Origin: an uncultured Traorella sp.
Lineage (GTDB): Bacteria > Bacillota_I > Bacilli_A > Erysipelotrichales > Erysipelotrichaceae
Length of the DNA: 33,820 nucleotides
Reading direction: 5' to 3'
Assembly (NCBI GenBank): GCA_945938205.1
Contig: CAMEUL010000001.1
Location: 1-33,820 of the forward strand
This document shows positions 9,088 through 33,756 of this stretch, in pieces (position 1 is the stretch's first letter; each line of letters begins with the position of its first letter). Below the pieces are notes generated by a model. That model made no database searches and was not told the origin of the DNA. It saw only the letters and a program-made list of their open reading frames with translations. The translations under genes were made by a program, and so were the position numbers.

Positions 9088-9463
9088 GGGGCTGTCATGG
9101 TTTCGACAGAGATATGTTTGGTATAGACGGCAATCGAGTGGCTACGTAAAAGCTCTTAAAAATAAACGGAAAAAACTTATTTGCTAACTTTGGTGGAAAC
9201 CGCCAGGTTGCATTCGCTGCTTAATTAACCTAACTACTGGTTTGCAGCCGTCCTTCTGATCTGCCGCTCTTAAGATCAGACAGGGTGTCATAAATAAGGG
9301 ATAGTCCATCTGAAAGTCTGAGTTCAGGTGGATGAAATTCATCAGACACATCAGTAGGAGTTTGTTCATCATTACCTGCTGAATAAAAGGTATGAACTAA
9401 ATTGTAGATGTCTATACGTGGGACTATTTTTGGACAGGGGTTCGACTCCCCTCAGCTCCACCA
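9088..9463 (+). ncRNA. ssrA: tmRNA
   Basis: 5' GGGGCTGTCATGGTTTCGACAG and 3' GGTTCGACTCCCCTCAGCTCCACCA with G3:U alanine acceptor; internal tag ORF 9168-9224 GKNLFANFGGNRQVAFAA*; directly after smpB. Confidence 0.97.
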
Positions 9464-13176: not shown

Positions 13177-14979
13177 ATGATGAAGCATTTGCATAAAATA
13201 ACAGGGATACTTTTAATCATACTTGCAACTGTCGTACTGTGCCTGACTTGTATCAACAATCAGCAATCCATGATGGCGTTTCCTCTGAAAGTATCGTTTG
13301 TTGGTGACTATAAGATCGAGGATGGAGACTGGAATCCCATCACAAAAGATAAATTCATTGCTGCTAATCAGGGGAATGTTACCTTGAAAGGATTTTTTCA
13401 GCTGGAAGATCCGGATGGAAATGTTTTAGGTGAAGTTGAAGAAGGAATGATCGTAGATCTGTATTTTAATCATCTTGCAGGAGACGTATTTGTTGAGGGA
13501 GAAGGTTTTCGAGCATTTGATTCTGAAAACAAAATCTATGGAAAAAGCAGCTGTGGTGAACAGTGGATTGCTTATATGGTTCCGGCAGGTGAAGTGGAAA
13601 TAATTTTAAAGAATCCGCATTCTTTTGGAAATGAGAACGCAGTCAATGAATTTCTGGATTCTATGATGCTTTATTCTTCTGAATCAATTGACCAGGCTGT
13701 ACAACAAGGAAATACAGAAAGACTGATAGGTTTTGTGATCCTGATTACATCATTGGGTTTATTGGGAATTGCAATTTTCTCAACGCTGATCCAGGAAATA
13801 CAAAGTGATATGGTCTGGATGCTTGCTTTTTTGCTTTTCTTTGCTGGAGGTTATTTTATACTGAACTCAAAGAATATTTCATTGTGGAGTCCCTTAGTGA
13901 TTTTTAATACAACGGCTTTGCTTTTATGCATGATGCTGTATGTCATTATACTGATGATACTGATGACAAAATCATTCACTTCATATCTTCAAAAAATAGG
14001 AAAGGCTGTTCCTGTTATAATGGGAACCGTTACAGGAGCGCTTCTTTTGTCATCATTATTGAAAGATGTTTATTTGCATGATTTGTTACCTTATTGGACT
14101 TTGGCCTTGGGAATCAGTGATATTTTGATGCTGGGATGCTGTCTGATGAGCCTGAAAGAAACAAAAGGAAAGCATCGGATATTGCTGCTATTCTATATTT
14201 TGTTATTACTTGCTTTTCATATGGATATTCTTGGAACGATATGGGGAAAATGGCAAGGAGGATTTCTTTCAAAAATTCTGTTTTTCTGTTTGTTTGTGAT
14301 TGCTCTTGTCATTGCTTTGAAAGTGATTCCTTCCAATATCAAAAGCAGTATTCATGAAAAGGAACTTGAAGTGGAGCTCCAACAGAGCAGAATATCCATT
14401 ATGCTGAGTCAGATCCAGCCGCATTTCCTGTACAATTCAATCAGTGCTATTCGTGAATTATGCCGTCAGGATCCAAAACGCGCTTTTGATGCTTTAGGTG
14501 TTTTTTCAACTTATCTGAGATCCAATCTGGATTCTTTAGGATCTGAAAAACTGATTCCTTTTTCGAAAGAACTGGCGCATATTCAGGCATATCTAAAGCT
14601 TGAACAACTGCGATTTGGTGATGAACTGAAGGTCGTCTATGATATACAAAAGAAAGATTTTTGCTTACCATCCTTATGTGTGCAGCCTTTAGTTGAAAAT
14701 GCAGTCAAACATGGTTTATGCAAAAAAGAGGGAAAAGGAACGCTGACTTTAAAAACAAGAGAGATAGGCGATAAGATCCTGATTGAAATTCAGGATGATG
14801 GCATTGGTTTTGATGTAGAAAAAATGCATTCAGCCAAAGATAAGAATAAACATTATGGTATTGAAAATGTCAGCATGCGTCTGAAACAAAAAATGAATGC
14901 GGAAATGACCATTGATAGTGAACTTCAGAAAGGAACGACTGTCAGAATACTGATTGATATGCAGAAGGAGGCGTTATGA
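13177..14979 (+). CDS. LytS/YehU-type (His_kinase) membrane sensor kinase 1
   Basis: N-terminal TM + extracellular domain + multi-TM region; SQIQPHFLYN, EQLRF, QPLVENAVKHG, DDGIGF, GTTV. Confidence 0.92.
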   Translation: MMKHLHKITGILLIILATVVLCLTCINNQQSMMAFPLKVSFVGDYKIEDGDWNPITKDKFIAANQGNVTLKGFFQLEDPDGNVLGEVEEGMIVDLYFNHLAGDVFVEGEGFRAFDSENKIYGKSSCGEQWIAYMVPAGEVEIILKNPHSFGNENAVNEFLDSMMLYSSESIDQAVQQGNTERLIGFVILITSLGLLGIAIFSTLIQEIQSDMVWMLAFLLFFAGGYFILNSKNISLWSPLVIFNTTALLLCMMLYVIILMILMTKSFTSYLQKIGKAVPVIMGTVTGALLLSSLLKDVYLHDLLPYWTLALGISDILMLGCCLMSLKETKGKHRILLLFYILLLLAFHMDILGTIWGKWQGGFLSKILFFCLFVIALVIALKVIPSNIKSSIHEKELEVELQQSRISIMLSQIQPHFLYNSISAIRELCRQDPKRAFDALGVFSTYLRSNLDSLGSEKLIPFSKELAHIQAYLKLEQLRFGDELKVVYDIQKKDFCLPSLCVQPLVENAVKHGLCKKEGKGTLTLKTREIGDKILIEIQDDGIGFDVEKMHSAKDKNKHYGIENVSMRLKQKMNAEMTIDSELQKGTTVRILIDMQKEAL

Positions 14980-15812
14980 TGAATATCCTTGTTGTAGATG
15001 ATGAACGTCTTGCATTGGATGGCTTGATCAATGAACTTGAAAAAGTATTTCCCAATGCGAAGATCCATGGCGAAAGAATGGCATTTTTAGTGATGCCATG
15101 GGTAGAGAATCTGAAAGAACAGGAAGAAACGCTTTCCTATGCTTTTTTGGATATTGAAATGGGGTCAATTAGCGGATTAGAACTGGCGCGGCAACTAAAA
15201 GATATTTATCCTCATGTGAAACTGATCTTTTGTACAGCTTACAGTGAATATGCCATTAATGCTTATGGTTTGTGTGCTAAGGGATATTTGTTGAAACCGA
15301 TACAAGCCAAAGATATCGAACATGTATTAGATGAAATGGTAATGGATTGGCGTGAAGAAATCAATTCAAGGGATCGTGACATCCGTGTACAAACATTTGG
15401 ACATTTTGAAGTATTTGTAGATGGAAATCCCCTTGTATTTGAAAGATCGAAAGCAAAAGAACTGTTAGCTTATCTGGTCGATCGTCATGGTTCGTCTGTC
15501 ACAACAGAACAGATTGCCATGATATTATGGGAAGATGCTGTTTATGACAGAAAGCTCAAGAATATGACAACTACCATTATTGCCTCTTTACGCAATACTC
15601 TTAATGCGGCAGGAATTGGAGATATCATCATAAAATCATGGAATCATTTATCTTTAGACGTTTCTAAAATTAAATGTGATGCTTATGATTATGAAAAATG
15701 GGATGTGATTGCAGTAAATTCTTATCATGGAGAATATATGGTGAATTACTCTTGGGCAGAATTCACCAATGGAAAATATGCCACCATGGAAGAAAAAACC
15801 AATAAAGAATAG
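14976..15812 (+). CDS. Response regulator 1 (REC + winged-helix, SARP-like output)
   Basis: VVDDE, FLDIEM, CTAYSEY, YLLKP; output VQTFGHFEV..KAKELLAYL..ILWE..CDAY..YHGEYM..YSWA; overlaps kinase stop. Confidence 0.88.
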   Translation: MMNILVVDDERLALDGLINELEKVFPNAKIHGERMAFLVMPWVENLKEQEETLSYAFLDIEMGSISGLELARQLKDIYPHVKLIFCTAYSEYAINAYGLCAKGYLLKPIQAKDIEHVLDEMVMDWREEINSRDRDIRVQTFGHFEVFVDGNPLVFERSKAKELLAYLVDRHGSSVTTEQIAMILWEDAVYDRKLKNMTTTIIASLRNTLNAAGIGDIIIKSWNHLSLDVSKIKCDAYDYEKWDVIAVNSYHGEYMVNYSWAEFTNGKYATMEEKTNKE

Positions 15813-15838
15813 CTTGATCGAAAGATCAAGTTTTTTTA
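15811..15838 (+). terminator. Terminator after response regulator 1
   Basis: AGCTTGATC-GAAA-GATCAAGTT plus T-run. Confidence 0.85.
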
Positions 15839-15856
15839 TTCACATGTATATTATTA

Positions 15857-15892
15857 TTGTTGTCCTTTTGTTGTCCTTTGTTTTGTATAATA
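15857..15892 (+). promoter_or_regulatory. Tandem-repeat promoter, type A (upstream of alarmone synthetase operon)
   Basis: Perfect 11-mer tandem TTGTTGTCCTT x2 (15857-15878), TATAAT at 15886-15891; 15861-15892 matches 28039-28070 at 31/32 nt. Confidence 0.8.
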
Positions 15893-15918: not shown

Positions 15919-16998
15919 ATGAACATTAAAGATAGAATGATTATAGAAGAATACAGAAAACAGAAAGCTGATTTTGAGAGATTGGGAGATGTAGTACATC
16001 AGATCATGAAGGACATGCTGAAGGATGCTCATATCATGGTCAATGCAGTCCAGCATCGTGTCAAAGAAGAAAAGAGTCTTCAGGGAAAACTCTATCGAAA
16101 ACCAGATGAACTACAGAAGTTTTCAGATCTTACAGATATTCTCGGTACCCGAATTATTTGTTACTTTGCAGATGATGTGGATCGAATTGGGAAACTGATT
16201 GAAAATACCTTTGAGATTGACTGGGAAAACAGTACCGATAAAAGAGCTCTTTTAAAAGCGGATGCTTTTGGGTATCTATCGCTTCATTATATTTGCTTGC
16301 TGCCAGCCAATGCAGGATATCCTGAAGAACTTTTAGGAAAAAAGTTTGAAGTGCAAATTCGTACCATTCTCCAACATGCATGGTCAGATGTGAATCACGA
16401 TTTGGGGTATAAAAGTGAATTTGGAGTACCAAGAGAAATTGTGCGTGAATTTGCTCGCTTGGCAGGATTAATGGAAATCGCCGATGAAGAATTCATGCAT
16501 GTTCGTGATCATGTGAAAGAATATACGCAGGATACCAGAAAGAAAATCATTGAAGATGAAGCAGAGGATGTTTTGATCAATCTCGTTTCTTTAAGTGAAT
16601 ATATGCTGCATAACAAAAAAATGAGAGCCTTTCTTCAGAAACTGGCAGACATTGAAAACTCTGAGATTACTGAAATAGATCCGGAAAACTATATCAATCA
16701 GTTGAAATGGCTGAAAGTAGAAACGATTGGGGATCTTCACAGAATGCAGGAAAGAAATGAAAAACTGGCTTTTGAGTTAGCCAAGAAAACACTGGAAGGA
16801 TCTGAATTGGATATTCTTTCTTCCAATGTGGCACTGCGTTTCTTATGTCGTGCAGAATTAATTCAAGGAAAATACAGTGAAAATGAAGTAACTGAATTCA
16901 TCATGCTGACAGTCAATATCAGAGAAAGAGCTGAACGTCAGGCCAAACGACTGATGAGAACAGCCGATGCTCTTATGAAGGATGAGAAGAATGGATGA
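15919..16998 (+). CDS. RelA/SpoT-domain alarmone synthetase (SAS-type, with C-terminal extension)
   Basis: HRVK..KSL..K, DILGTRII, FGYLSLHY, EVQIRTILQHAWSDVNHDLGYK; no HD, TGS or ACT domain recognised; RBS GAGGGAG favours ATG15919. Confidence 0.9.
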   Translation: MNIKDRMIIEEYRKQKADFERLGDVVHQIMKDMLKDAHIMVNAVQHRVKEEKSLQGKLYRKPDELQKFSDLTDILGTRIICYFADDVDRIGKLIENTFEIDWENSTDKRALLKADAFGYLSLHYICLLPANAGYPEELLGKKFEVQIRTILQHAWSDVNHDLGYKSEFGVPREIVREFARLAGLMEIADEEFMHVRDHVKEYTQDTRKKIIEDEAEDVLINLVSLSEYMLHNKKMRAFLQKLADIENSEITEIDPENYINQLKWLKVETIGDLHRMQERNEKLAFELAKKTLEGSELDILSSNVALRFLCRAELIQGKYSENEVTEFIMLTVNIRERAERQAKRLMRTADALMKDEKNG

Positions 16999-18835
16999 AT
17001 ATGAAAGAGCATTGAAATTTGCTACCAAGAAGCATGAAGGACAGTATCGAAAAGGTGGAGAACCCTATATTACTCATCCTATAGCCGTTTCCAATATCTT
17101 AAAAGAAAAAGGATATGGTATAGAGTATCAGATTACCGCACTCTTTCATGATTTGTTGGAAGATACCGATGCGACTAGAGAAGAAATTGAAACTCTTGGC
17201 GGTAAAGAAGTGTTGAAAGCAGTTGAACTGCTGACCAAGCATGAGGACTATCAGATGGAAGAATATGTTTCGAATATCCGTAAGAATCCGATTGCCTTTG
17301 CCGTAAAGGGAGCAGACCGTCTGCATAATCTTTTGAGTGCTGTGGACACAGATGAATCCTTCAAACGTCGTTATATTTTGGAAAGTATTGACTGGTATTT
17401 GGATTTTTCAGAAGAAATGCCCAAAGCTGTCAAAGCATTAGTGAAAACATTGGATCAGCCGATCCGCAAAATGTCATTGGAATATGATCCGGTTCATTCA
17501 GCAAAAGAACTCAAGGCCAATGCCTTTGTATTAAAAGGAGATATATGTTACTCAGTTTCACTTACTGAACTAGTTACGGTATCACAGGGATATGTGGTAT
17601 GTATTGAAGGAAAGTCACAGGGTGTGTATGAAATATTACCAGATGAATATTCAAAATTACCGCTCCATGATTATGGACATCGTTTGATTCTTCCAGGTAT
17701 GGTAGATCTTCATATCCATGCTCCTCAGTTTGCTTTTCGCGGATTGGGGATGGATGATGAATTGATGGTTTGGCTTCAGAAACAAACCTTTCCTGAGGAA
17801 TCAAAATATCAGGATCTTGAATATGCCAGAAAAGCTTATACTCAGTTTTGTGATGCAATGCATAAAAGTGCAACGACTCATGCATGTGTGTTTGGAACCA
17901 AGCATCGTGATGCGACCATTCTATTAATGGAACTTATGGAGAAAAGCGGACTTGTCAGCTATGTGGGAAAGGTCAATATGGATCGTGATGCACCGGAAGC
18001 ATTATGTGAGCCGAGTGCTGATTATTCTGCTTATGATACATTTGGTTGGATCAATCAGGTTCATGGAAGATTCCACCATACAAAACCAATCTTAACTCCA
18101 CGCTTTATTCCTTGTTGCACCAACGAACTATTGGAACAGTTAAGAGAAATACAGATTGCTTATGATCTTCCAATACAGTCTCATCTTTCTGAAAACATTG
18201 GTGAAGTAGAATGGGTCCATCAGATACGTCCGGATGTTGCTTTTTATGGGGATGCTTATCATGACTATGGATTGTTTGGAATTGAGCGAAGAAGTGGAAA
18301 GAAAGTTCCAACCATAATGGCTCATTGTGTATATTCAACCGAAGATGAAGTAGATCGTCTCTTAGAAAATGGTGTTTATGTGGCGCATTGTCCAACGTCG
18401 AATGTTAATTTGTCTTCAGGAATAGCACCTGTTCGAAAATATTTGAAAAAGGGTTTAAAAATTGGGTTAGGAAGTGATGTTGCTGGAGGACATACGGAAT
18501 CCATGTTTGAGGTCATGAAAGAAACGATCCAAGTTTCAAAACTTTACTGGCGATATGTTGATCAAAAGGATGCACCGATTACTTTTAAGGAAGCCTTTTA
18601 TCTGGCAACTAAAGGTGGCGGAAGTTTCTTTGGAAACGTAGGAAGTTTTGAAAAAGGATATGATTTCAGTGCCATCGTACTTGATGAAAGCACTCTTCCA
18701 CATCCTCAAGAACTATCACTGATTCATCGGCTTGAAAGGGCTGTTTATGGATCGTTGGATCAAAAAGGTCTTGTAGCCAAATATGTGGATGGCAGTAAAT
18801 TGTTTGATGAAAAGGAGGGATTGGATGAAAAGTAA
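16991..18835 (+). CDS. Fusion: Mesh1/SpoT-type HD alarmone hydrolase + guanine deaminase
   Basis: N-term HEGQYRKGGEPYITHP, ALFHDLLEDT, KGADRLHNL; C-term PGMVDLHIHAPQF, TPRF, QSHLSEN, MAHC, HCPTSN, GLGSDVAGG (GuaD motifs); single uninterrupted frame. Confidence 0.9.
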   Translation: MDEYERALKFATKKHEGQYRKGGEPYITHPIAVSNILKEKGYGIEYQITALFHDLLEDTDATREEIETLGGKEVLKAVELLTKHEDYQMEEYVSNIRKNPIAFAVKGADRLHNLLSAVDTDESFKRRYILESIDWYLDFSEEMPKAVKALVKTLDQPIRKMSLEYDPVHSAKELKANAFVLKGDICYSVSLTELVTVSQGYVVCIEGKSQGVYEILPDEYSKLPLHDYGHRLILPGMVDLHIHAPQFAFRGLGMDDELMVWLQKQTFPEESKYQDLEYARKAYTQFCDAMHKSATTHACVFGTKHRDATILLMELMEKSGLVSYVGKVNMDRDAPEALCEPSADYSAYDTFGWINQVHGRFHHTKPILTPRFIPCCTNELLEQLREIQIAYDLPIQSHLSENIGEVEWVHQIRPDVAFYGDAYHDYGLFGIERRSGKKVPTIMAHCVYSTEDEVDRLLENGVYVAHCPTSNVNLSSGIAPVRKYLKKGLKIGLGSDVAGGHTESMFEVMKETIQVSKLYWRYVDQKDAPITFKEAFYLATKGGGSFFGNVGSFEKGYDFSAIVLDESTLPHPQELSLIHRLERAVYGSLDQKGLVAKYVDGSKLFDEKEGLDEK

Positions 18836-21014
18836 AATGAATCGTTTCAGCATGCCATTGCTCGTCTTTGTGCTAAGCGCAGTTCTCATTTTATCGACGA
18901 CTCTTCCTTTGCGAAATATTCTAGCAGCTGCCAATATTACAGATATCCGGTTTACGACAGCTCTCACGCCTGTCATTGGACTTTTGTTCGGTATTTTTGG
19001 AGCATTGGGATGTGCCACTGGTAATCTGATATCGGATCTAGTTTCCGGTTATGAAACTATGTATATTCTATTCGGCTTTATCCAGCAAATCATTTATGGA
19101 ATGGTTCCTTACTATTTGTGGAGAAAACTGAATACTCAACATGATGGTAATGAATTCCGCTTGGACAGTTTAAACAAAATTCTAAAATTCTGTTTAGTGA
19201 TATTCATCGATGCAGTGCTCATGGTAGTTTCACGAGGATTAATGAATAATGTATTTTCAATAGCGGATTTCTTCTCCATGAACAATCTGTATATTTTCAT
19301 TAACTATTTTGATATAGGATTGCTGTTTGGGTGCCCGGCGATGATTGCCGGAAATCTTCTTCAAAATTATCTGAATCATTTGAAGGATCAAGATGCTTCG
19401 AAAGTAATGACATTCTCACTAAATGAAAGAATGATCATCAATACGATCATCACAGGACTTGGCATCAGTTTCCTGATTGGGCTTGCAGTTTATTTGAGCG
19501 ATAAGATGAGTATTGAAGAATCTATTGTAAGTCTTGGTGGACGTATCTTTCTGTTTGAAACATTTGCTTTAAATTTCTATTTCGCATTGTCCATTGGTTT
19601 TATGTGGTTTACAGAAAAGAAAATATCCAAACCGGTAGAACACTTAGCGGAAATTGCAGGCAATTACTATGAAGAAAATTCAACTGAAACAGGCCGTCAA
19701 CATCTGATCAGTGCCTGTGAAACATATGCCAAGGATACAACGGAAGTTGGCAATCTTGCACGTTCTTATATTTCCATGGTAAAGGATCTAGATTCTTATG
19801 TTGAGAACTTGCAGAAGATCACAGCAGAAAAAGAAAGGATCAATGCTGAACTAACATTAGCCAGCAGCATTCAGGCACATATGTTGCCTTGCATTTTTCC
19901 ACCATTTCCGGATCATGATGAATTTGATATTTATGCTACTATGACTCCTGCCAAAGAAGTGGGCGGAGATTTCTATGATTTCTTTATGGTCGATGATACA
20001 CATCTCGCTGTGGTTATGGCGGATGTTTCAGGCAAAGGAGTTCCGGCTGCTCTGTTTATGGTGATTGCGAAAACACTGATTAAAAATTATGCCCAAATGG
20101 GTTTGCCACCAAGTGAAGTATTCACTACTGTCAATGCTCTTCTATGTGAAGGCAATGATGCCGGATTGTTTGTTACTGCATGGTTAGGCGTTTTAGATCT
20201 TGTCAATGGAAAACTAACCTATGTCAATGCAGGACACAATCCACCGTTACTGATGCATCAGGGCAATTCATTTGAATATCTGAAGTGCCATCCTGGATTT
20301 GTATTAGCAGGATTGGAAACCGTGAAATATCGTCAGAAAGAGATAGAACTGCAGCCAAAAGATCGTCTGTTTCTTTATACGGATGGTATCACAGAAGCAA
20401 CCGACATCAAGAATCAGCTGTATGGTGAAGAAAGACTGCAGTCTTATCTGAATCAGCATCGACAAGATAGTTTGTATGATACCCTTTATGGTTTAGAAGG
20501 TGATATAGATGCTTTTGTGGGTGAAGCAGAACAGTTTGATGATATGACCATGCTCATATTGGAGGTCAAGAAGAGAAAGAGTTCTTTGACTGAAAAGATT
20601 TTTCCTGCAAAAGATGAAGTCTTGCCGGAAGTTTTGAATTTTATAGAAAATGAACTAGAGAAGATTAAATGTTCCAAGAAAACAATCATGGCTATTTCAG
20701 TTGTCATTGAAGAAGTCTTTGTGAACATTGCTCATTATGCCTATAAAGAGGAATCAGGCCATGCGAAAGTTGGATTTGGTTTTGATGAAGCAACCCATAT
20801 GGCAACCTTCAAGATTTCAGATCAGGGCATTCCTTTTGATCCTTTGAAAAAAGAAGATCCGGACATCACTTTGTCAGCGGAAGAAAGAGAAAAGGGAGGC
20901 CTTGGTATCCTTATGATCAAAAAAATGATGGATACCGTTTCCTATTGTTATGAAAACAATGAGAACGTATTGACGATAACAAAAAAGATTGATTCAGAGG
21001 AGGTGATCAAATGA
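18825..21014 (+). CDS. Membrane PP2C (SpoIIE/RsbU) phosphatase with QueT/S-component-like TM domain, HAMP-like linker and C-terminal RsbW-like kinase
   Basis: IRFTTAL..GLLFG..GA.GCA.GNLISD; VGGDFYD, ADVSGKG, NAGH, YTDGITE, DDMT; EEVFVNI..Y, DQGIPFDP, GGLG; RBS AAGGAGG before ATG18825. Confidence 0.88.
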   Translation: MKSKMNRFSMPLLVFVLSAVLILSTTLPLRNILAAANITDIRFTTALTPVIGLLFGIFGALGCATGNLISDLVSGYETMYILFGFIQQIIYGMVPYYLWRKLNTQHDGNEFRLDSLNKILKFCLVIFIDAVLMVVSRGLMNNVFSIADFFSMNNLYIFINYFDIGLLFGCPAMIAGNLLQNYLNHLKDQDASKVMTFSLNERMIINTIITGLGISFLIGLAVYLSDKMSIEESIVSLGGRIFLFETFALNFYFALSIGFMWFTEKKISKPVEHLAEIAGNYYEENSTETGRQHLISACETYAKDTTEVGNLARSYISMVKDLDSYVENLQKITAEKERINAELTLASSIQAHMLPCIFPPFPDHDEFDIYATMTPAKEVGGDFYDFFMVDDTHLAVVMADVSGKGVPAALFMVIAKTLIKNYAQMGLPPSEVFTTVNALLCEGNDAGLFVTAWLGVLDLVNGKLTYVNAGHNPPLLMHQGNSFEYLKCHPGFVLAGLETVKYRQKEIELQPKDRLFLYTDGITEATDIKNQLYGEERLQSYLNQHRQDSLYDTLYGLEGDIDAFVGEAEQFDDMTMLILEVKKRKSSLTEKIFPAKDEVLPEVLNFIENELEKIKCSKKTIMAISVVIEEVFVNIAHYAYKEESGHAKVGFGFDEATHMATFKISDQGIPFDPLKKEDPDITLSAEEREKGGLGILMIKKMMDTVSYCYENNENVLTITKKIDSEEVIK

Positions 21015-21598
21015 AATCAAACGTATGCGAACTGAAAAAAGATGGAAAAGGTATGACAAACATTTTAGATGAAGTGGAAAAAACAGCAGTTTACAATGGA
21101 TTGTCACATCAAGAAAGTCTACGCCTTCGCCTTTTGGCAGAGGAACTGACGGGTATGCTACCATCACTTATTGAACGTTATGATGGAAAACTCTGGATCG
21201 TGGCAGAGAACTTGAAGTTTGAATTGCACGTGGAATTGATTTCGGATGAAATGGATTCTGAAACCAGAGCGAAATTGATATCCGTATCAAAAGAGAAAAG
21301 AAATGCCAAAGCCAATGGTATCCTTGGGCAGCTGATCGATATTGTGGATGAAATGTTTATGAATACCAGTACTATTCCAATGGCACCTACTGAGTATTAT
21401 GCCAATACTCAGTCACCGCTGAATTATTCCTTCACTTGGTCATTGGAACAATATCGTGAATCAGTTAAAAACAAAAAAGAAGATTGGGATGAATTGGAAA
21501 AATCAATCATTGGAAGCTTAAGTGATGATGTGCTGGTTGGAATTCGAGGGAGAAAGATCGATATGATCATCACCAAGAATTTTGAAAAAAGATCGTAA
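21011..21598 (+). CDS. Hypothetical protein, possibly degenerate anti-sigma-kinase-like fold
   Basis: Coupled to upstream gene, RBS GAGGTG; RLRLLAEEL resembles RsbW helix but lacks N-box Asn and DxG/GxG boxes. Confidence 0.55.
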   Translation: MKSNVCELKKDGKGMTNILDEVEKTAVYNGLSHQESLRLRLLAEELTGMLPSLIERYDGKLWIVAENLKFELHVELISDEMDSETRAKLISVSKEKRNAKANGILGQLIDIVDEMFMNTSTIPMAPTEYYANTQSPLNYSFTWSLEQYRESVKNKKEDWDELEKSIIGSLSDDVLVGIRGRKIDMIITKNFEKRS

Positions 21599-21643: not shown

Positions 21644-21943
21644 ATGACAATTAATCTTGAAAAGAAAAATAATGAATTATGGATCGAAGTTGAAGGCAGA
21701 TTGGATACCAATACAGCGCCAGCTTTGGAAAAAGTATTTACAGATCTGGATGTTGAAATGAAAGATGTCGTTTTGGACATGAATCAGCTGGAATACATTT
21801 CTTCTGCCGGATTGCGTGTTTTACTGGCTGCTCAGAAAAAAATGAGCAAAATCGGATCACTGAAACTTGTGGGTGTTTGTGATTCTGTCATGGAGATTTT
21901 CGAAATGACTGGATTTGATGATATTTTAACAATTGAAGAATAA
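21644..21943 (+). CDS. STAS-domain anti-sigma factor antagonist (RsbV/SpoIIAA-like)
   Basis: GRLDT..A, LDMNQLEYISSAGLRVLL (phosphorylatable Ser), EIFEMTGF. Confidence 0.95.
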   Translation: MTINLEKKNNELWIEVEGRLDTNTAPALEKVFTDLDVEMKDVVLDMNQLEYISSAGLRVLLAAQKKMSKIGSLKLVGVCDSVMEIFEMTGFDDILTIEE

Positions 21944-24059: not shown

Positions 24060-24869
24060 ATGAAAATTCTAGTAGCAGATGATGAGAAAATCGCTCTGAA
24101 TGGTTTGGTCAATGAAATCAAAAAAGTTCTTCCGAATGCTGAAATATACAAATTTCATGGAGGAAAAGAAGTCCTGAATTCATGTCTGGACCAAACGTAT
24201 GATATTGCTTTTCTGGATATTGAAATGAGAGATGTGAATGGAATCGAACTTGCGAAAGAATTGAAAGCTATTCATCCCAAAATCAACATCATCTTTACAA
24301 CGGGATACAGTGAATATGCTCAGACAGCTTTTTCAATCCACGCCAGTGGATACGTAATTAAGCCGGTTACTGCCGACAAAATTGCAAAAGAAATCGAGAA
24401 TCTACGTTATTCTATTGTTACTGAGGACGAAGAAACACTTCATATTTAAACTTTTGGAAATTTTGAATGCTTTGTCAATCAGATTCCTGTGAAGTTCAAA
24501 TATACGAAAACCAAAGAACTTCTTGCATATCTGGTTGATCGTGGCGGTGCTCTTTGCAGCAATGGTGAATTGATATCAATTTTATGGGAAGATTGCGCTA
24601 CTTCTAAAAGTCAGTCTTCATATTTAAGAAATCTTTATGCGGATCTGATTCAGTCCTTGAAACAGGTACATTGTGAGAATGTCATCATTCGTCAGAGAGG
24701 AAAAATTGCCATTTGTCCGGATAAGGTAATCTGTGATTATTATGATTGGCTAAAGGGTTATCCCTATGCCATCAATGCATATCGTGGTGAATATATGAGT
24801 CAGTACAGCTGGAGCGTGTTTTCTTTAGGTGTGTTTGATAAAGAAGAAGATGAAATCAACCAAAAATGA
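24060..24869 (+). pseudogene. Response regulator 2 (REC + SARP-like wHTH) split by in-frame TAA at 24447-24449
   Basis: Reads ..LHI*TFGNFECFVNQIPVKFKYTKTKELLAYL.. in one frame, aligning with IRVQTFGHFEVFVDG of regulator 1. Confidence 0.9.
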
Positions 24870-28028: not shown

Positions 28029-28037
28029 TTGAATACG

Positions 28038-28070
28038 ATGTCCTTTTGTTGTCCTTTGGTTTGTATAATA
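28038..28070 (+). promoter_or_regulatory. Tandem-repeat promoter, type A (upstream of EamA-MATE)
   Basis: ATGTCCT-tttg-TTGTCCT-N8-TATAAT; near-identical to 15861-15892. Confidence 0.8.
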
Positions 28071-28282: not shown

Positions 28283-28552
28283 ATGGAATATAAATGTAAA
28301 TGGTATTTGTCTGATGGAAGTGTTTTGAGAGGTAAAACAGCTGCTAAATATTTACATACAAAGCTAAAGAACTATGAGAGATTGATTGAAGATGTGGATT
28401 GTGTCCTGTCTAGATCTTTGAAATCCAATCATATTGTAGAAGAAAATACTTTAGCTAATACAGTCATGTCTACCGGCGAAACTTTGTCCATTATTCAAAT
28501 AGAACTTGAATTATTGTTAGAAAGGGTGTCTTGTGTTTTGGAAGATTCCTGA
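28283..28552 (+). CDS. Hypothetical 89-aa passenger ORF inside the IS
   Basis: Strong RBS AGGAGG before ATG; no recognised motif; overlaps the 3' end of orfB on the opposite strand. Confidence 0.5.
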   Translation: MEYKCKWYLSDGSVLRGKTAAKYLHTKLKNYERLIEDVDCVLSRSLKSNHIVEENTLANTVMSTGETLSIIQIELELLLERVSCVLEDS

Positions 28553-29607
28553 TTTCGAGCATCCTTGACCTTTTTGATCTTTTCTTTGATCTTATCAGGT
28601 TCTTTGATATATTCTTTCAGTGGATAGTTTCCTGTCTGATAATATTCATAAAATTCATTTGGAGATAACTTGGCCAAATTGTATTGGTATCTTTCATTAT
28701 TATAGTAGTCAATATAATCATCAATGATTTCCTTAAGTTCTTCAAATGTTTCTATATCCTTGAAATTCTCACCAATCTCATCCTTCATATGTCCAAAAAA
28801 GGATTCTTGTGGTGCATTGTCCCAACAGTTTCCTCGTCTTGACATCGATCGTCGAATTTCTTTATCTTCCAATAGATCGATGAATTGTATTGAGGAATAA
28901 TGTGCCCCTTGATCTGAATGTATTAATGCATCTGTATGTATCTTTTCTTTATGATTTTCAAATAGTTGATTCACTGTTTCTAAAACAAATTCTTCTTCCA
29001 TCGACAGTGACAAGACGTATGCAAGTATCTGCTTTGCAAAGGCATCTTTGATGACCGATAGATAAGTTTTCGTCCTTTTTTGCGAAAAGTAAAAATAAGT
29101 TATATCCGTCAATAAGACATATCCTGGCCCATAATCTTCAAAATGCCTATCTAATAGATTTTCTGCATAATTGGATGTTCTTATCGCTTTCATCATTCTT
29201 CGATATGGATTAGCTTTACGTATCGGGCAGAGCAGATGATATTTTTTCATCAATCTGGATATCTTCTTTTCGTTCATGACGATTCCTTTATGCAATAGCC
29301 GCATTCGTATGCCTCGTCTTCCTTTATCTATTCCTTTATGTTTGTAAGCATCCAATATCAAATCGAAATCTTTTTCATCTTGTTTTTCTTTCTTTTTCAT
29401 GTATGATTCTGGATTTTTCTTTGAGTTTATCCATGCATAATAACCACTTTTGGATACTCCTGCTGCCTCACAAAGATAGGCTATTGTAAGTGTATTGCCC
29501 TTTGATTGCAATGTCCTATTGATCAGTTCGTATTTTTCTCTTGCTCCTTTATCCTTTGCATCTTGGATAGTTGCTTTCTGTTGATAGATCTGACTCTTTT
29601 TAAAAAA
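28495..29607 (-). CDS. IS3-family OrfB DDE transposase (frame open from 29607; TTG at 29511)
   Basis: LLTDITY, HSDQGAHY, SMSRRGNCWDNAPQESFF, YIDYYNNER. Confidence 0.95.
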   Translation of the reverse strand, partial: FFKKSQIYQQKATIQDAKDKGAREKYELINRTLQSKGNTLTIAYLCEAAGVSKSGYYAWINSKKNPESYMKKKEKQDEKDFDLILDAYKHKGIDKGRRGIRMRLLHKGIVMNEKKISRLMKKYHLLCPIRKANPYRRMMKAIRTSNYAENLLDRHFEDYGPGYVLLTDITYFYFSQKRTKTYLSVIKDAFAKQILAYVLSLSMEEEFVLETVNQLFENHKEKIHTDALIHSDQGAHYSSIQFIDLLEDKEIRRSMSRRGNCWDNAPQESFFGHMKDEIGENFKDIETFEELKEIIDDYIDYYNNERYQYNLAKLSPNEFYEYYQTGNYPLKEYIKEPDKIKEKIKKVKDARNQESSKTQDTLSNNNSSSI

Positions 29608-29969
29608 TCATTCTCTTGTTGGAGAATTTTGTTTTTATGTTTCAAACGTGCGATTTGTTCTTCCGGTGTTAGATCTTTTGTGATGGGTCTTCCACTATTG
29701 CCTTTGCGTGTATCCTTGAATCCTGCTGATCGTTCAGCTTCCTTTTTGATGCGATAAGTAAAATTATTTCTTCGCTTATTATCTATAACTTTTAGATCAA
29801 ACCCATATTTATAGAAGATCATCGACGGAGACATTCCACTTTGATAGTCATTCCAGAATAGTTCCTTAAAAGTCTCACTGTAATTGATATAATTCTCAGT
29901 TACACTTGTAACATATGGATTTCCTTTTAAATGTTCAATTTGTTCTTGTGTGAATTTCTTTACTGCCAT
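29523..29969 (-). CDS. IS3-family OrfA (HTH)
   Basis: L..NPYV..V....I.YS..FK, zipper-like EEQIARLKHKNKILQQENDFLK; overlaps orfB in -1 frame. Confidence 0.88.
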   Translation of the reverse strand: MAVKKFTQEQIEHLKGNPYVTSVTENYINYSETFKELFWNDYQSGMSPSMIFYKYGFDLKVIDNKRRNNFTYRIKKEAERSAGFKDTRKGNSGRPITKDLTPEEQIARLKHKNKILQQENDFLKRVRSINRKQLSKMQRIKEQEKNTN

Positions 29970-33680: not shown

Positions 33681-33756
33681 GGGGTTTTAGCTCAGTTGGG
33701 AGAGCGCTACGCTGGCAGCGTAGAGGTCAGGGGTTCGAACCCCCTAAGCTCCACCA
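33681..33756 (+). tRNA. tRNA-Ala(GGC)
   Basis: 76-nt cloverleaf; anticodon arm CTACG-CT-GGC-AG-CGTAG; G3:U70; TTCGA T-loop; encoded CCA. Confidence 0.97.

Follow-up and report, generated by a model that had tools for sequence, protein, structure and literature searches.

The window analyzed here (33,820 nt; positions 1 to 33,820 of contig CAMEUL010000001.1, assembly GCA_945938205.1, from an uncultured Traorella sp.) carries a gene in which a hydrolase domain of the small alarmone hydrolase (SAH) type is joined in one reading frame to a guanine deaminase (GuaD), directly downstream of a gene for a small alarmone synthetase (SAS). This HD-GuaD fusion is real. As for its role, we see an even chance that the product is a docked bifunctional enzyme, which would reset the alarmone pulse of the synthetase and divert guanine from HPRT. 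Both domains are of known kinds, and no report of an SAH-GuaD fusion or of its predicted interface was found in the open-access literature. The elements concerned are as follows.

15919..16998 (call from 15913), + strand: small alarmone synthetase, RelP/RelQ-like SYNTH domain plus a helical extension of ~150 aa (Pfam RelA_SpoT)
16991..18835, + strand: HD-GuaD fusion gene, 614 aa from the ATG at 16991 (longest open reading frame call from 16982)
16991..17476, + strand: SAH-type HD domain, residues 4-165, with an intact catalytic set and without the Aph1 (p)ppApp signature
17477..17515, + strand: linker, residues 166-178, predicted local distance difference test (pLDDT) <50, of varying length among fusions
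17516..18814, + strand: amidohydrolase-type guanine deaminase domain, closest solved structure C. acetobutylicum GuaD 2i9u (43% identity)

Residue numbers are counted from the open reading frame (ORF) call at 16982 (617 aa); three are to be subtracted for the likelier start, the ATG at 16991, from which the 614-aa product equals in length the database calls for the HD-GuaD fusion. An earlier note, made from the sequence alone, had read a single frame running from the HD domain into a full GuaD, and this was borne out: the frame 16982/16991-18835 contained no internal stop, and Pfam assigned HD_4 to residues 10-135 (E 4.9e-15) and Amidohydro_1 to residues 236-576 (E 2.7e-43). The note had further asked for read support across ~17450-17530 and for a search for the HD_4 + Amidohydro_1 architecture, and both returned positive results. 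The junction 17450-17530 was bridged by one contig from each of four sequencing runs from four studies (three guessed to be DNA libraries, one an RNA library); the differences listed for these contigs included no indel in the fusion ORF, and the sole change listed within the junction was a silent G>A at 17458. The RNA-library contig spanned the synthetase through GuaD, although contigs cannot show transcription. In the search with residues 1-260, for which 8000 candidates were scored and 120 matches listed, the best 48 of those listed carried both domains, at 51-98% identity over these residues; eight of these clusters were near-duplicates or truncations of one lineage, leaving 40. An assembly error or a strain-specific lost stop was ruled out by the bridging contigs from four studies together with the 48 clusters of the same architecture. 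The objection raised in the note, that relatives might encode two separate genes, applied in part: most hydrolases of the clade stand alone without guaD, but the join, kept in ~40 clusters, is not strain-specific.

The HD motifs that the note had listed (HxxQxRK..PYxxHP, HD..EDT, and DRLHN) were all found, as H18-x-x-Q21-x-R23-K24, P28-Y29-x-x-H32-P33, H56-D57-x-x-E60-D61-T62, and D112-R-L-H-N116. Alignment to T. thermophilus Rel, in which R43 corresponds to R23, recovered the Mn ligands (H, HD, D) and the catalytic R, ED, and N of the RelA/SpoT homologue (RSH) hydrolases. R23, H32, H56, D57, E60, D61, D112, and N116 were invariant in 37/37 aligned fusions (54-70% identical to that of the window), and likewise in all 52 rows of the stand-alone alignment. 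Given this invariance, the HD domain appears to be a functional enzyme rather than a dead sensor; the dead sensor was thus rejected as the principal explanation, and the proposal of the note that the domain is purely an alarmone sensor is unlikely.

In the predicted structure of the fusion, this part adopted an all-helical HD fold, and the HD part of a homologue model (P0053) gave Z scores of 17-18.5 to solved SAHs; against PaSAH, the HD part of the homologue model reached Z 18.5, with a root-mean-square deviation of 2.0 over 157 residues. The known SAHs (PaSAH 6z3n/6yvc, C. glutamicum and L. levettii RelH, human Mesh1, and XccSAH) and the HD domains of long Rel/SpoT share this fold and catalytic set, at ~30-40% identity to the window domain, which unlike the named SAHs is fused to a metabolic enzyme. 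Of the description "Mesh1-like", the HD type stood, but the Mesh1 naming was loose, since the long-Rel HD scored as well or better (E 1e-22 vs 6e-18 for Mesh1). The chain is neither the single-domain form of SAHs, being fused to GuaD, nor a long RSH with HD-SYNTH-TGS-ACT in one chain, as it contains no SYNTH domain; the Rel-type HD of the host sits elsewhere, on contig C83. The domain is therefore SAH-like in its working, but new in its architecture. Searched with two HD motifs of the fusion, the alignment file of PMC7229694 gave no match.

The (p)ppApp hydrolase signature of Aph1 consists of D24, D116, and R119 (PMC10083569, partial text), whereas the equivalents mapped through T. thermophilus Rel are R23, L118, and V121. 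A (p)ppApp-specific Aph1/Apk type was rejected because the Aph1 and Apk signatures were missing from the HD domain and the synthetase. From these residues (p)ppGpp would be the likeliest nucleotide for both, bearing in mind that SAHs can be promiscuous, as XccSAH is toward ppApp or NADPH (PMC9765508, partial text).

The metal ligands of GuaD claimed in the note were also present: H244, H246, H401, and D499, together with Q249, P373-R374-F375, E404, and H448, aligned with 2uz9 and 2i9u, and H244, H246, Q249, R374, F375, H401, E404, H448, and D499 were invariant in 37/37 aligned fusions. The best solved match was the C. acetobutylicum guanine deaminase 2i9u (E 1e-118; TM 0.95 on target), and the top 11 Foldseek rows listed were guanine deaminases or a redesign of one. 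The best NCBIfam family was TIGR02967 (guanine deaminase), at 328.2 bits, below its curated cut-off of 375.4. This half is accordingly predicted to deaminate guanine. It shares its metal ligands, PRF motif, and fold with the amidohydrolase GuaDs of C. acetobutylicum (2i9u), E. coli (6ohb), and human (GDA, 2uz9), and differs from them in its N-terminal HD domain and in an aromatic surface patch on helix 346-360, a site that is polar in 2i9u. Other guanine deaminase fusions were met in P0245, P0269, and P0280, with GNAT, a MobA-like NTP transferase, and a molybdopterin dehydrogenase FAD subunit.

The stop of the synthetase gene overlaps the ATG of the fusion. A RelA_SpoT gene lay directly upstream here and in two of three other fused loci, so that the coupling to a synthetase put forward in the note held. 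The synthetase carried the catalytic residues of RelP/RelQ (compared after PMC5794853, partial text): R49, K51, S55, K59, R62, D75, R80, Y121, S123-x-H125, E146, and H162. Its Syn3 and Syn4 motifs were SxH and IR, not the GxN and YH of Apk (the Syn3 distinction is from PMC12226406, partial text). RelP and RelQ were its nearest structures (Z 17-18), CapRel, Tas1, and FaRel giving Z 7-13; thus RelP/RelQ (SasA/SasB) of Firmicutes are its best matches in both sequence and structure, with the same catalytic residues by motif. Unlike them, it has a C-terminal extension of ~150 aa, for which whole-model searches found no structural match (Atlas scores <0.9), and the G-loop FGYLSLH, which matches two rows adjoining mixRel-labelled rows in the alignment file of PMC7229694. 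We infer that the enzyme makes (p)ppGpp. The pairs FaRel/ATfaRel (PMC7229694, partial text) and Apk2/Aph1 (PMC10083569, partial text) likewise have a synthetase gene followed by a hydrolase gene; the window pair differs from Apk2/Aph1 in its guanine-type signatures and from the SAS-SAH pairs generally in lying in a cassette of sensors and switches, not in a phage or a minimal toxin-antitoxin locus.

AlphaFold2 modeled the fusion with a predicted template modelling score (pTM) of 0.84 despite the disordered linker 166-178, as compared with 0.62 for a natural SAS-HD fusion. When HD (1-165) and GuaD (176-612) were supplied to ESMFold2 as two chains, with one paired alignment of our own making, the docking score was 0.65 against 0.00 for the best of three controls; the runs agreed in at least 83% of contacts, with a partner pLDDT of at least 89. 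The docking mark was reached by 116/157 solved and 2/215 mismatched pairs, a calibration that is only roughly valid with our own alignment; the docked chains, moreover, are halves of one natural protein, which makes it possible for the score to pass through likeness. No PDB chain matched both domains. The predicted contact lies between the following segments.

17378..17434, + strand: HD side of the predicted interface, residues 133-151; also residues 160-163
18011..18058, + strand: GuaD side of the predicted interface, residues 344-359; also residues 389-394 at 18146-18163

The two domains are thus predicted to dock via a defined helix pair; their binding is supported, though not demonstrated, by the model. 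HD helix 125-139 bears the invariant E134 and the near-invariant Y131 and Y139. The predicted contact involves the C-terminal helices of the HD domain, in contrast to SAH homodimers, which are held together mainly by the first three helices (PMC9293644, partial text); no paper on the GuaD dimer interface was found in the open-access literature.

The GuaD-side patch was present in 37/40 fusions, as against 2 of the 146 unfused GuaDs that show the patch region (195 examined). Three unfused rows nested among fusions (P0089, P0110, and P0115) had lost it, and all four unfused GuaDs sharing a genome or contig with the hydrolase (three genomes and locus L086) had kept it; its distribution is partly due to shared ancestry. 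The HD side was followed in 53 loci, namely 31 clusters from 80 metagenome loci kept of 390 confirmed, plus 22 GTDB loci, some of which may be of the same species. Three of them were fused (two with the synthetase directly upstream), 34 were unfused with a synthetase, 14 were without one, and two were unassigned. L133 and I136 were hydrophobic in 33/34 synthetase-linked stand-alone hydrolase loci vs 3/14 loci without synthetase, and in the split form P0418 L133 was replaced by S. Docking of HD on the synthetase, in the SAS-HD model with its pTM of 0.62, had only nine paired rows to draw on.

As to its history, when the best 150 matches out of 1.84 billion representatives were considered, a single 50% cluster held the full-length architecture; as no other representative among them covers the whole profile, the fusion family appears small. 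It occurs mainly in gut metagenomes from animals, with several from pigs. Among the five fused genes with DNA available, synonymous sites were saturated between distant pairs, and pairs with L022 showed dN of 0.04-0.055 vs dS of 0.49-0.62 in both domains. These substitution patterns supported the view that the fusion is old and conserved. A quick, unrooted tree was built from the GuaD domains of 42 fused and 45 unfused rows (87 in all; without near-duplicates, P0001, P0034, short rows, and L002). Every fused row fell into a single branch, with SH-aLRT support of 93 (not starred), and three unfused rows lay inside it. The HD tree (140 domains, made up of a third of the 120 stand-alone matches plus picks) intermingled fused and stand-alone rows, with 15 fusion-state changes by parsimony, at least three of them forced by starred branches; split forms were also found inside 90% clusters (P0418 and P0432). 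A single fusion followed by fissions and exchange fits these trees, but is not proven by them.

Among close kin, neither the 40 relatives nor the 250 family genomes searched yielded the fusion, and 0/173 matching plasmid records covered 80% of the fusion protein. The hydrolase clade itself was found in 0/399 other genomes of the class of the window (one not scored) and in 14/399 genomes of the class of an Acutalibacteraceae metagenome-assembled genome (MAG); given this distribution, the hydrolase block was likely acquired horizontally. Stand-alone hydrolases of the clade, 60-70% identical, filled all 120 short matches listed. The same synthetase family was fused to the same HD in nine clusters, and no triple SAS-HD-GuaD fusion was seen among the 120 matches listed or seven long matches, which is weak evidence. 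Natural SYNTH-HD fusions (P0049-P0054, P0059, P0064, P0065, and P0171) have an order reversed relative to long Rel; P0052 adds a STAS domain, and one HD-STAS fusion exists. In P0057-P0072, the HD clade was joined to ACPS, CN-hydrolase, a metallo-beta-lactamase fold, flavodoxin, homocysteine methyltransferase, ADP-ribosylglycohydrolase, APH, and HAD, and most of these fusions had lost the docking patch.

The note had held that GuaD removes guanine from salvage. This was not borne out, since the host genome encodes hprT, xpt, guaA, and guaB (and two xanthine/uracil-family permeases), and no xanthine dehydrogenase was found in it (79% complete); GuaD would therefore reroute guanine, and the reading of the reaction as disposal was weakened by xpt, guaA, and guaB. 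(p)ppGpp inhibits HPRT and XPRT, and in (p)ppGpp-null B. subtilis guanine lowers viability and xanthine lowers growth (10.1101/2020.03.04.977603, partial text). A docked bifunctional enzyme could then work as follows. The adjacent two-component system (TCS) would switch the operon on via a repeat promoter, and the (p)ppGpp produced by the synthetase would block HPRT and XPRT. The HD domain would clear (p)ppGpp and reopen salvage, while GuaD would convert free guanine to xanthine, which would have to pass via XPRT and GuaA and could not take the single HPRT step. The fusion would provide 1:1 delivery and fix a pre-existing contact, and the guanine-fed GTP overshoot would be limited while the alarmone brake is off. 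Allostery is possible in such an enzyme, but is not required.

Several observations weigh against this proposal. GuaD is a minority partner, being fused in only 3/53 hydrolase loci; among GTDB genomes with the hydrolase (incomplete MAGs), the fusion was found in 0/21 and a close unfused guaD in 3/21, and in one fused lineage (L028/L033) the gene directly upstream is not a synthetase. N161 of the synthetase replaces the E of the RelQ EH motif. Xanthine, too, disturbs GTP homeostasis without (p)ppGpp (10.1101/2020.03.04.977603, partial text). The HD clade is also fused to ADP-ribosylglycohydrolase, ACPS, CN-hydrolase, and others, and GuaD to GNAT, an NTP transferase, and a xanthine dehydrogenase subunit; with partners so varied on both sides, fusions would seem cheap here. 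Five patch-bearing unfused GuaDs (L016-L019 and L158) lie in incomplete MAGs in which no clade hydrolase was found, L016-L019 having been retrieved by a query with the patch motif among its six patterns. Most of the 33 synthetase-linked loci that keep the HD-side patch lack guaD, so that this surface probably has a second partner, and the patch may have evolved for it.

Further features of the neighborhood of the fusion are given below.

13177-14979, + strand: two-component sensor, His_kinase PF06580 (Pfam)
14976-15812, + strand: receiver plus winged-helix regulator, two-component partner of the 13177-14979 sensor
15857..15892, + strand: promoter-like element, a direct repeat of 11-bp period and then TATAAT, after a terminator-like hairpin at 15811-15832
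18825..21014, + strand: membrane PP2C (SpoIIE) phosphatase fused to an RsbW-type kinase, its start overlapping the stop of the fusion
21011..21598, + strand: 195-aa protein of no Pfam family, recurring after the PP2C/RsbW gene in related cassettes
21644..21943, + strand: STAS anti-anti-sigma-type protein with an ISSAG motif

This arrangement represents a conserved TCS-SAS-SAH-STAS-PP2C/RsbW cassette, of which STAS, PP2C/RsbW, a two-component pair, and a 320-aa protein recur in related loci, and in which the synthetase, directly upstream in 36/53 loci, is the constant partner of the hydrolase. The note had overlooked the STAS and PP2C/RsbW genes around the fusion. As in the RsbU-RsbV-RsbW partner switches, PP2C, serine kinase, and STAS share one operon; unlike them, the window switch has alarmone enzymes and GuaD as neighboring candidate outputs, and no sigma factor was found among the 28 window ORFs scanned. 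Sigma-less partner switches include SiaABCD and SypE-SypA. No paper joining SAS and STAS was found among the open-access literature matches listed. The position of guaD varied: it was unfused and four genes upstream in L086, two of the three genomes with a close guaD had it on the contig of the hydrolase ~22 kb off, and in L016 and L017 it lay beside switch genes, with no clade hydrolase found there. A six-pattern scan of genome contigs yielded only five unfused guaD loci. The cassette block lies a few genes downstream of tmRNA.

The repeat of the promoter-like element lies 8-10 nt before TATAAT, and the genome has only two copies (15857-15892 and 28035-28070), both near two-component genes. 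The pattern, drawn from the window, occurred eight times in 382 kb of related loci, each time with a second repeat, and zero times in 119 kb of controls; two more occurrences came from 177 kb, and in one of these the second repeat was not clear. The element was also seen in L024-L026, L031, L035, and L176. A sigma-70 promoter scan gave counts below chance (22 vs 35.6). An 11-bp repeat spacing suits OmpR/SARP-type regulators, and for this reason the adjacent two-component regulator is the likely candidate activator of the repeat promoter. In the strain of run X9, 8248 extra bases flanked by the promoter 36-mer as a direct repeat lay directly upstream of the synthetase.

Other observations on the islands may be recorded here. 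The 320-aa protein (L086:1733-2683, L021:4862-5893, and 13 more loci) has a hydrophobic stretch in its C-terminal part, matches nothing in Pfam or PADLOC, and usually lies directly upstream of the synthetase or behind guaD; it was not found in the genome of the window. A STAS-APH-type kinase fusion (L016:13568-14743 and L017:13505-14674) lies behind guaD, the 320-aa protein, PP2C/RsbW, and STAS. A nucleoside phosphorylase-family gene, a 5'-nucleotidase, or a nucleotide cyclase with cNMP-binding proteins was present in L024, L025, L031, L086, L178, and L032, which suggests a wider nucleotide-signaling theme in related islands. The window also contains a tmRNA at 9088-9463 after smpB, a second response regulator at 24060-24869 with an in-frame stop at 24447-24449 that adjoins a second His_kinase gene, an integrase-core (IS-type) gene at 28495-29969 on the - strand, and a tRNA-Ala at 33681-33756 at the contig end.

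Against this background, the alternative that we entertain tentatively is an allosteric gate, in which alarmone bound to HD switches the deaminase, or guanine/xanthine switches the hydrolase, via the docked helices, and in which GuaD may have a competitor for its HD surface in the synthetase or STAS. Gating in one or the other direction had been put forward in the note, and the predicted docking of the domains is a prerequisite for it. On the HD side, the modeled interface draws on the outer face of helix 125-139, the helix of E134, Y131, and Y139, and the GuaD contact helix comes after the conserved GKVNMD strand. The HD patch tracks cassette membership in the proportions given above, and HD-STAS and SAS-HD fusions exist. 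A rigid interface, however, can be purely structural; known SAHs are regulated via product inhibition or oligomer state (PMC9293644, partial text), and the SAS-HD model showed no confident docking. Combining this gate with the switch leads to a broader proposal, which we regard as doubtful: the C-terminal helices of the hydrolase clade would be a regulatory docking site, taken by GuaD in the fusion and by STAS or the synthetase elsewhere, and a sigma-less membrane PP2C/RsbW-STAS phospho-switch would run alarmone hydrolysis and guanine deamination jointly through partner switching, as allosterically coupled activities.

It is also conceivable, though unlikely, that guaD merely came to lie behind the hydrolase in a fluid signaling island and was joined to it by an old stop loss, the two enzymes acting independently and the interface only burying an existing hydrophobic patch. 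The gene order of the islands is indeed shuffled, both domains have other fusion partners, the GuaD tree fits one origin while the HD tree gives the 15 fusion-state changes (at least three forced), and the split forms P0418 and P0432 occur within 90% clusters. What speaks against mere adjacency is that ~40 diverged clusters retain the fusion with synonymous sites saturated, that the patch is present in 4/4 unfused GuaDs from hydrolase-bearing genomes, and that it erodes after fission, on the GuaD side and, by L133 to S in P0418, on the HD side. A toxin-antitoxin or defense function, with a toxic synthetase, HD as type IV antitoxin (as in FaRel/ATfaRel), and GuaD draining guanine nucleotides abortively, is very improbable: the overlapping SAS-SAH pair resembles toxSAS loci (PMC7229694, partial text), the synthetase is directly upstream in most loci and gave a weak PADLOC PDC-S33 match (E 1e-16, SYNTH part only), but its structure is nearest RelP/RelQ and not CapRel, Tas1, or FaRel, natural SAS-HD fusions exist, and the neighbors are sensors and switches, with no PADLOC match for 6/9 proteins scanned.

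With the docked bifunctional enzyme as the preferred reading, the fusion presents an alarmone-degrading enzyme physically joined to a purine-catabolic enzyme, through an interface that is predicted and can be tracked in evolution. The control of purine salvage by (p)ppGpp is known to act through binding of target enzymes; if both halves work and talk to each other, the fusion would connect alarmone turnover directly to guanine catabolism. As the protein is one soluble chain of 614 aa, accessible to two standard assays, the question is directly testable. If true, this would also be an SAH under the control of a partner outside the RSH family, a case relevant to SAH regulation in general (PMC9293644, partial text), and the fusion offers a handle on an undescribed cassette of sigma-less partner switch and alarmone enzymes in gut and rumen Firmicutes.

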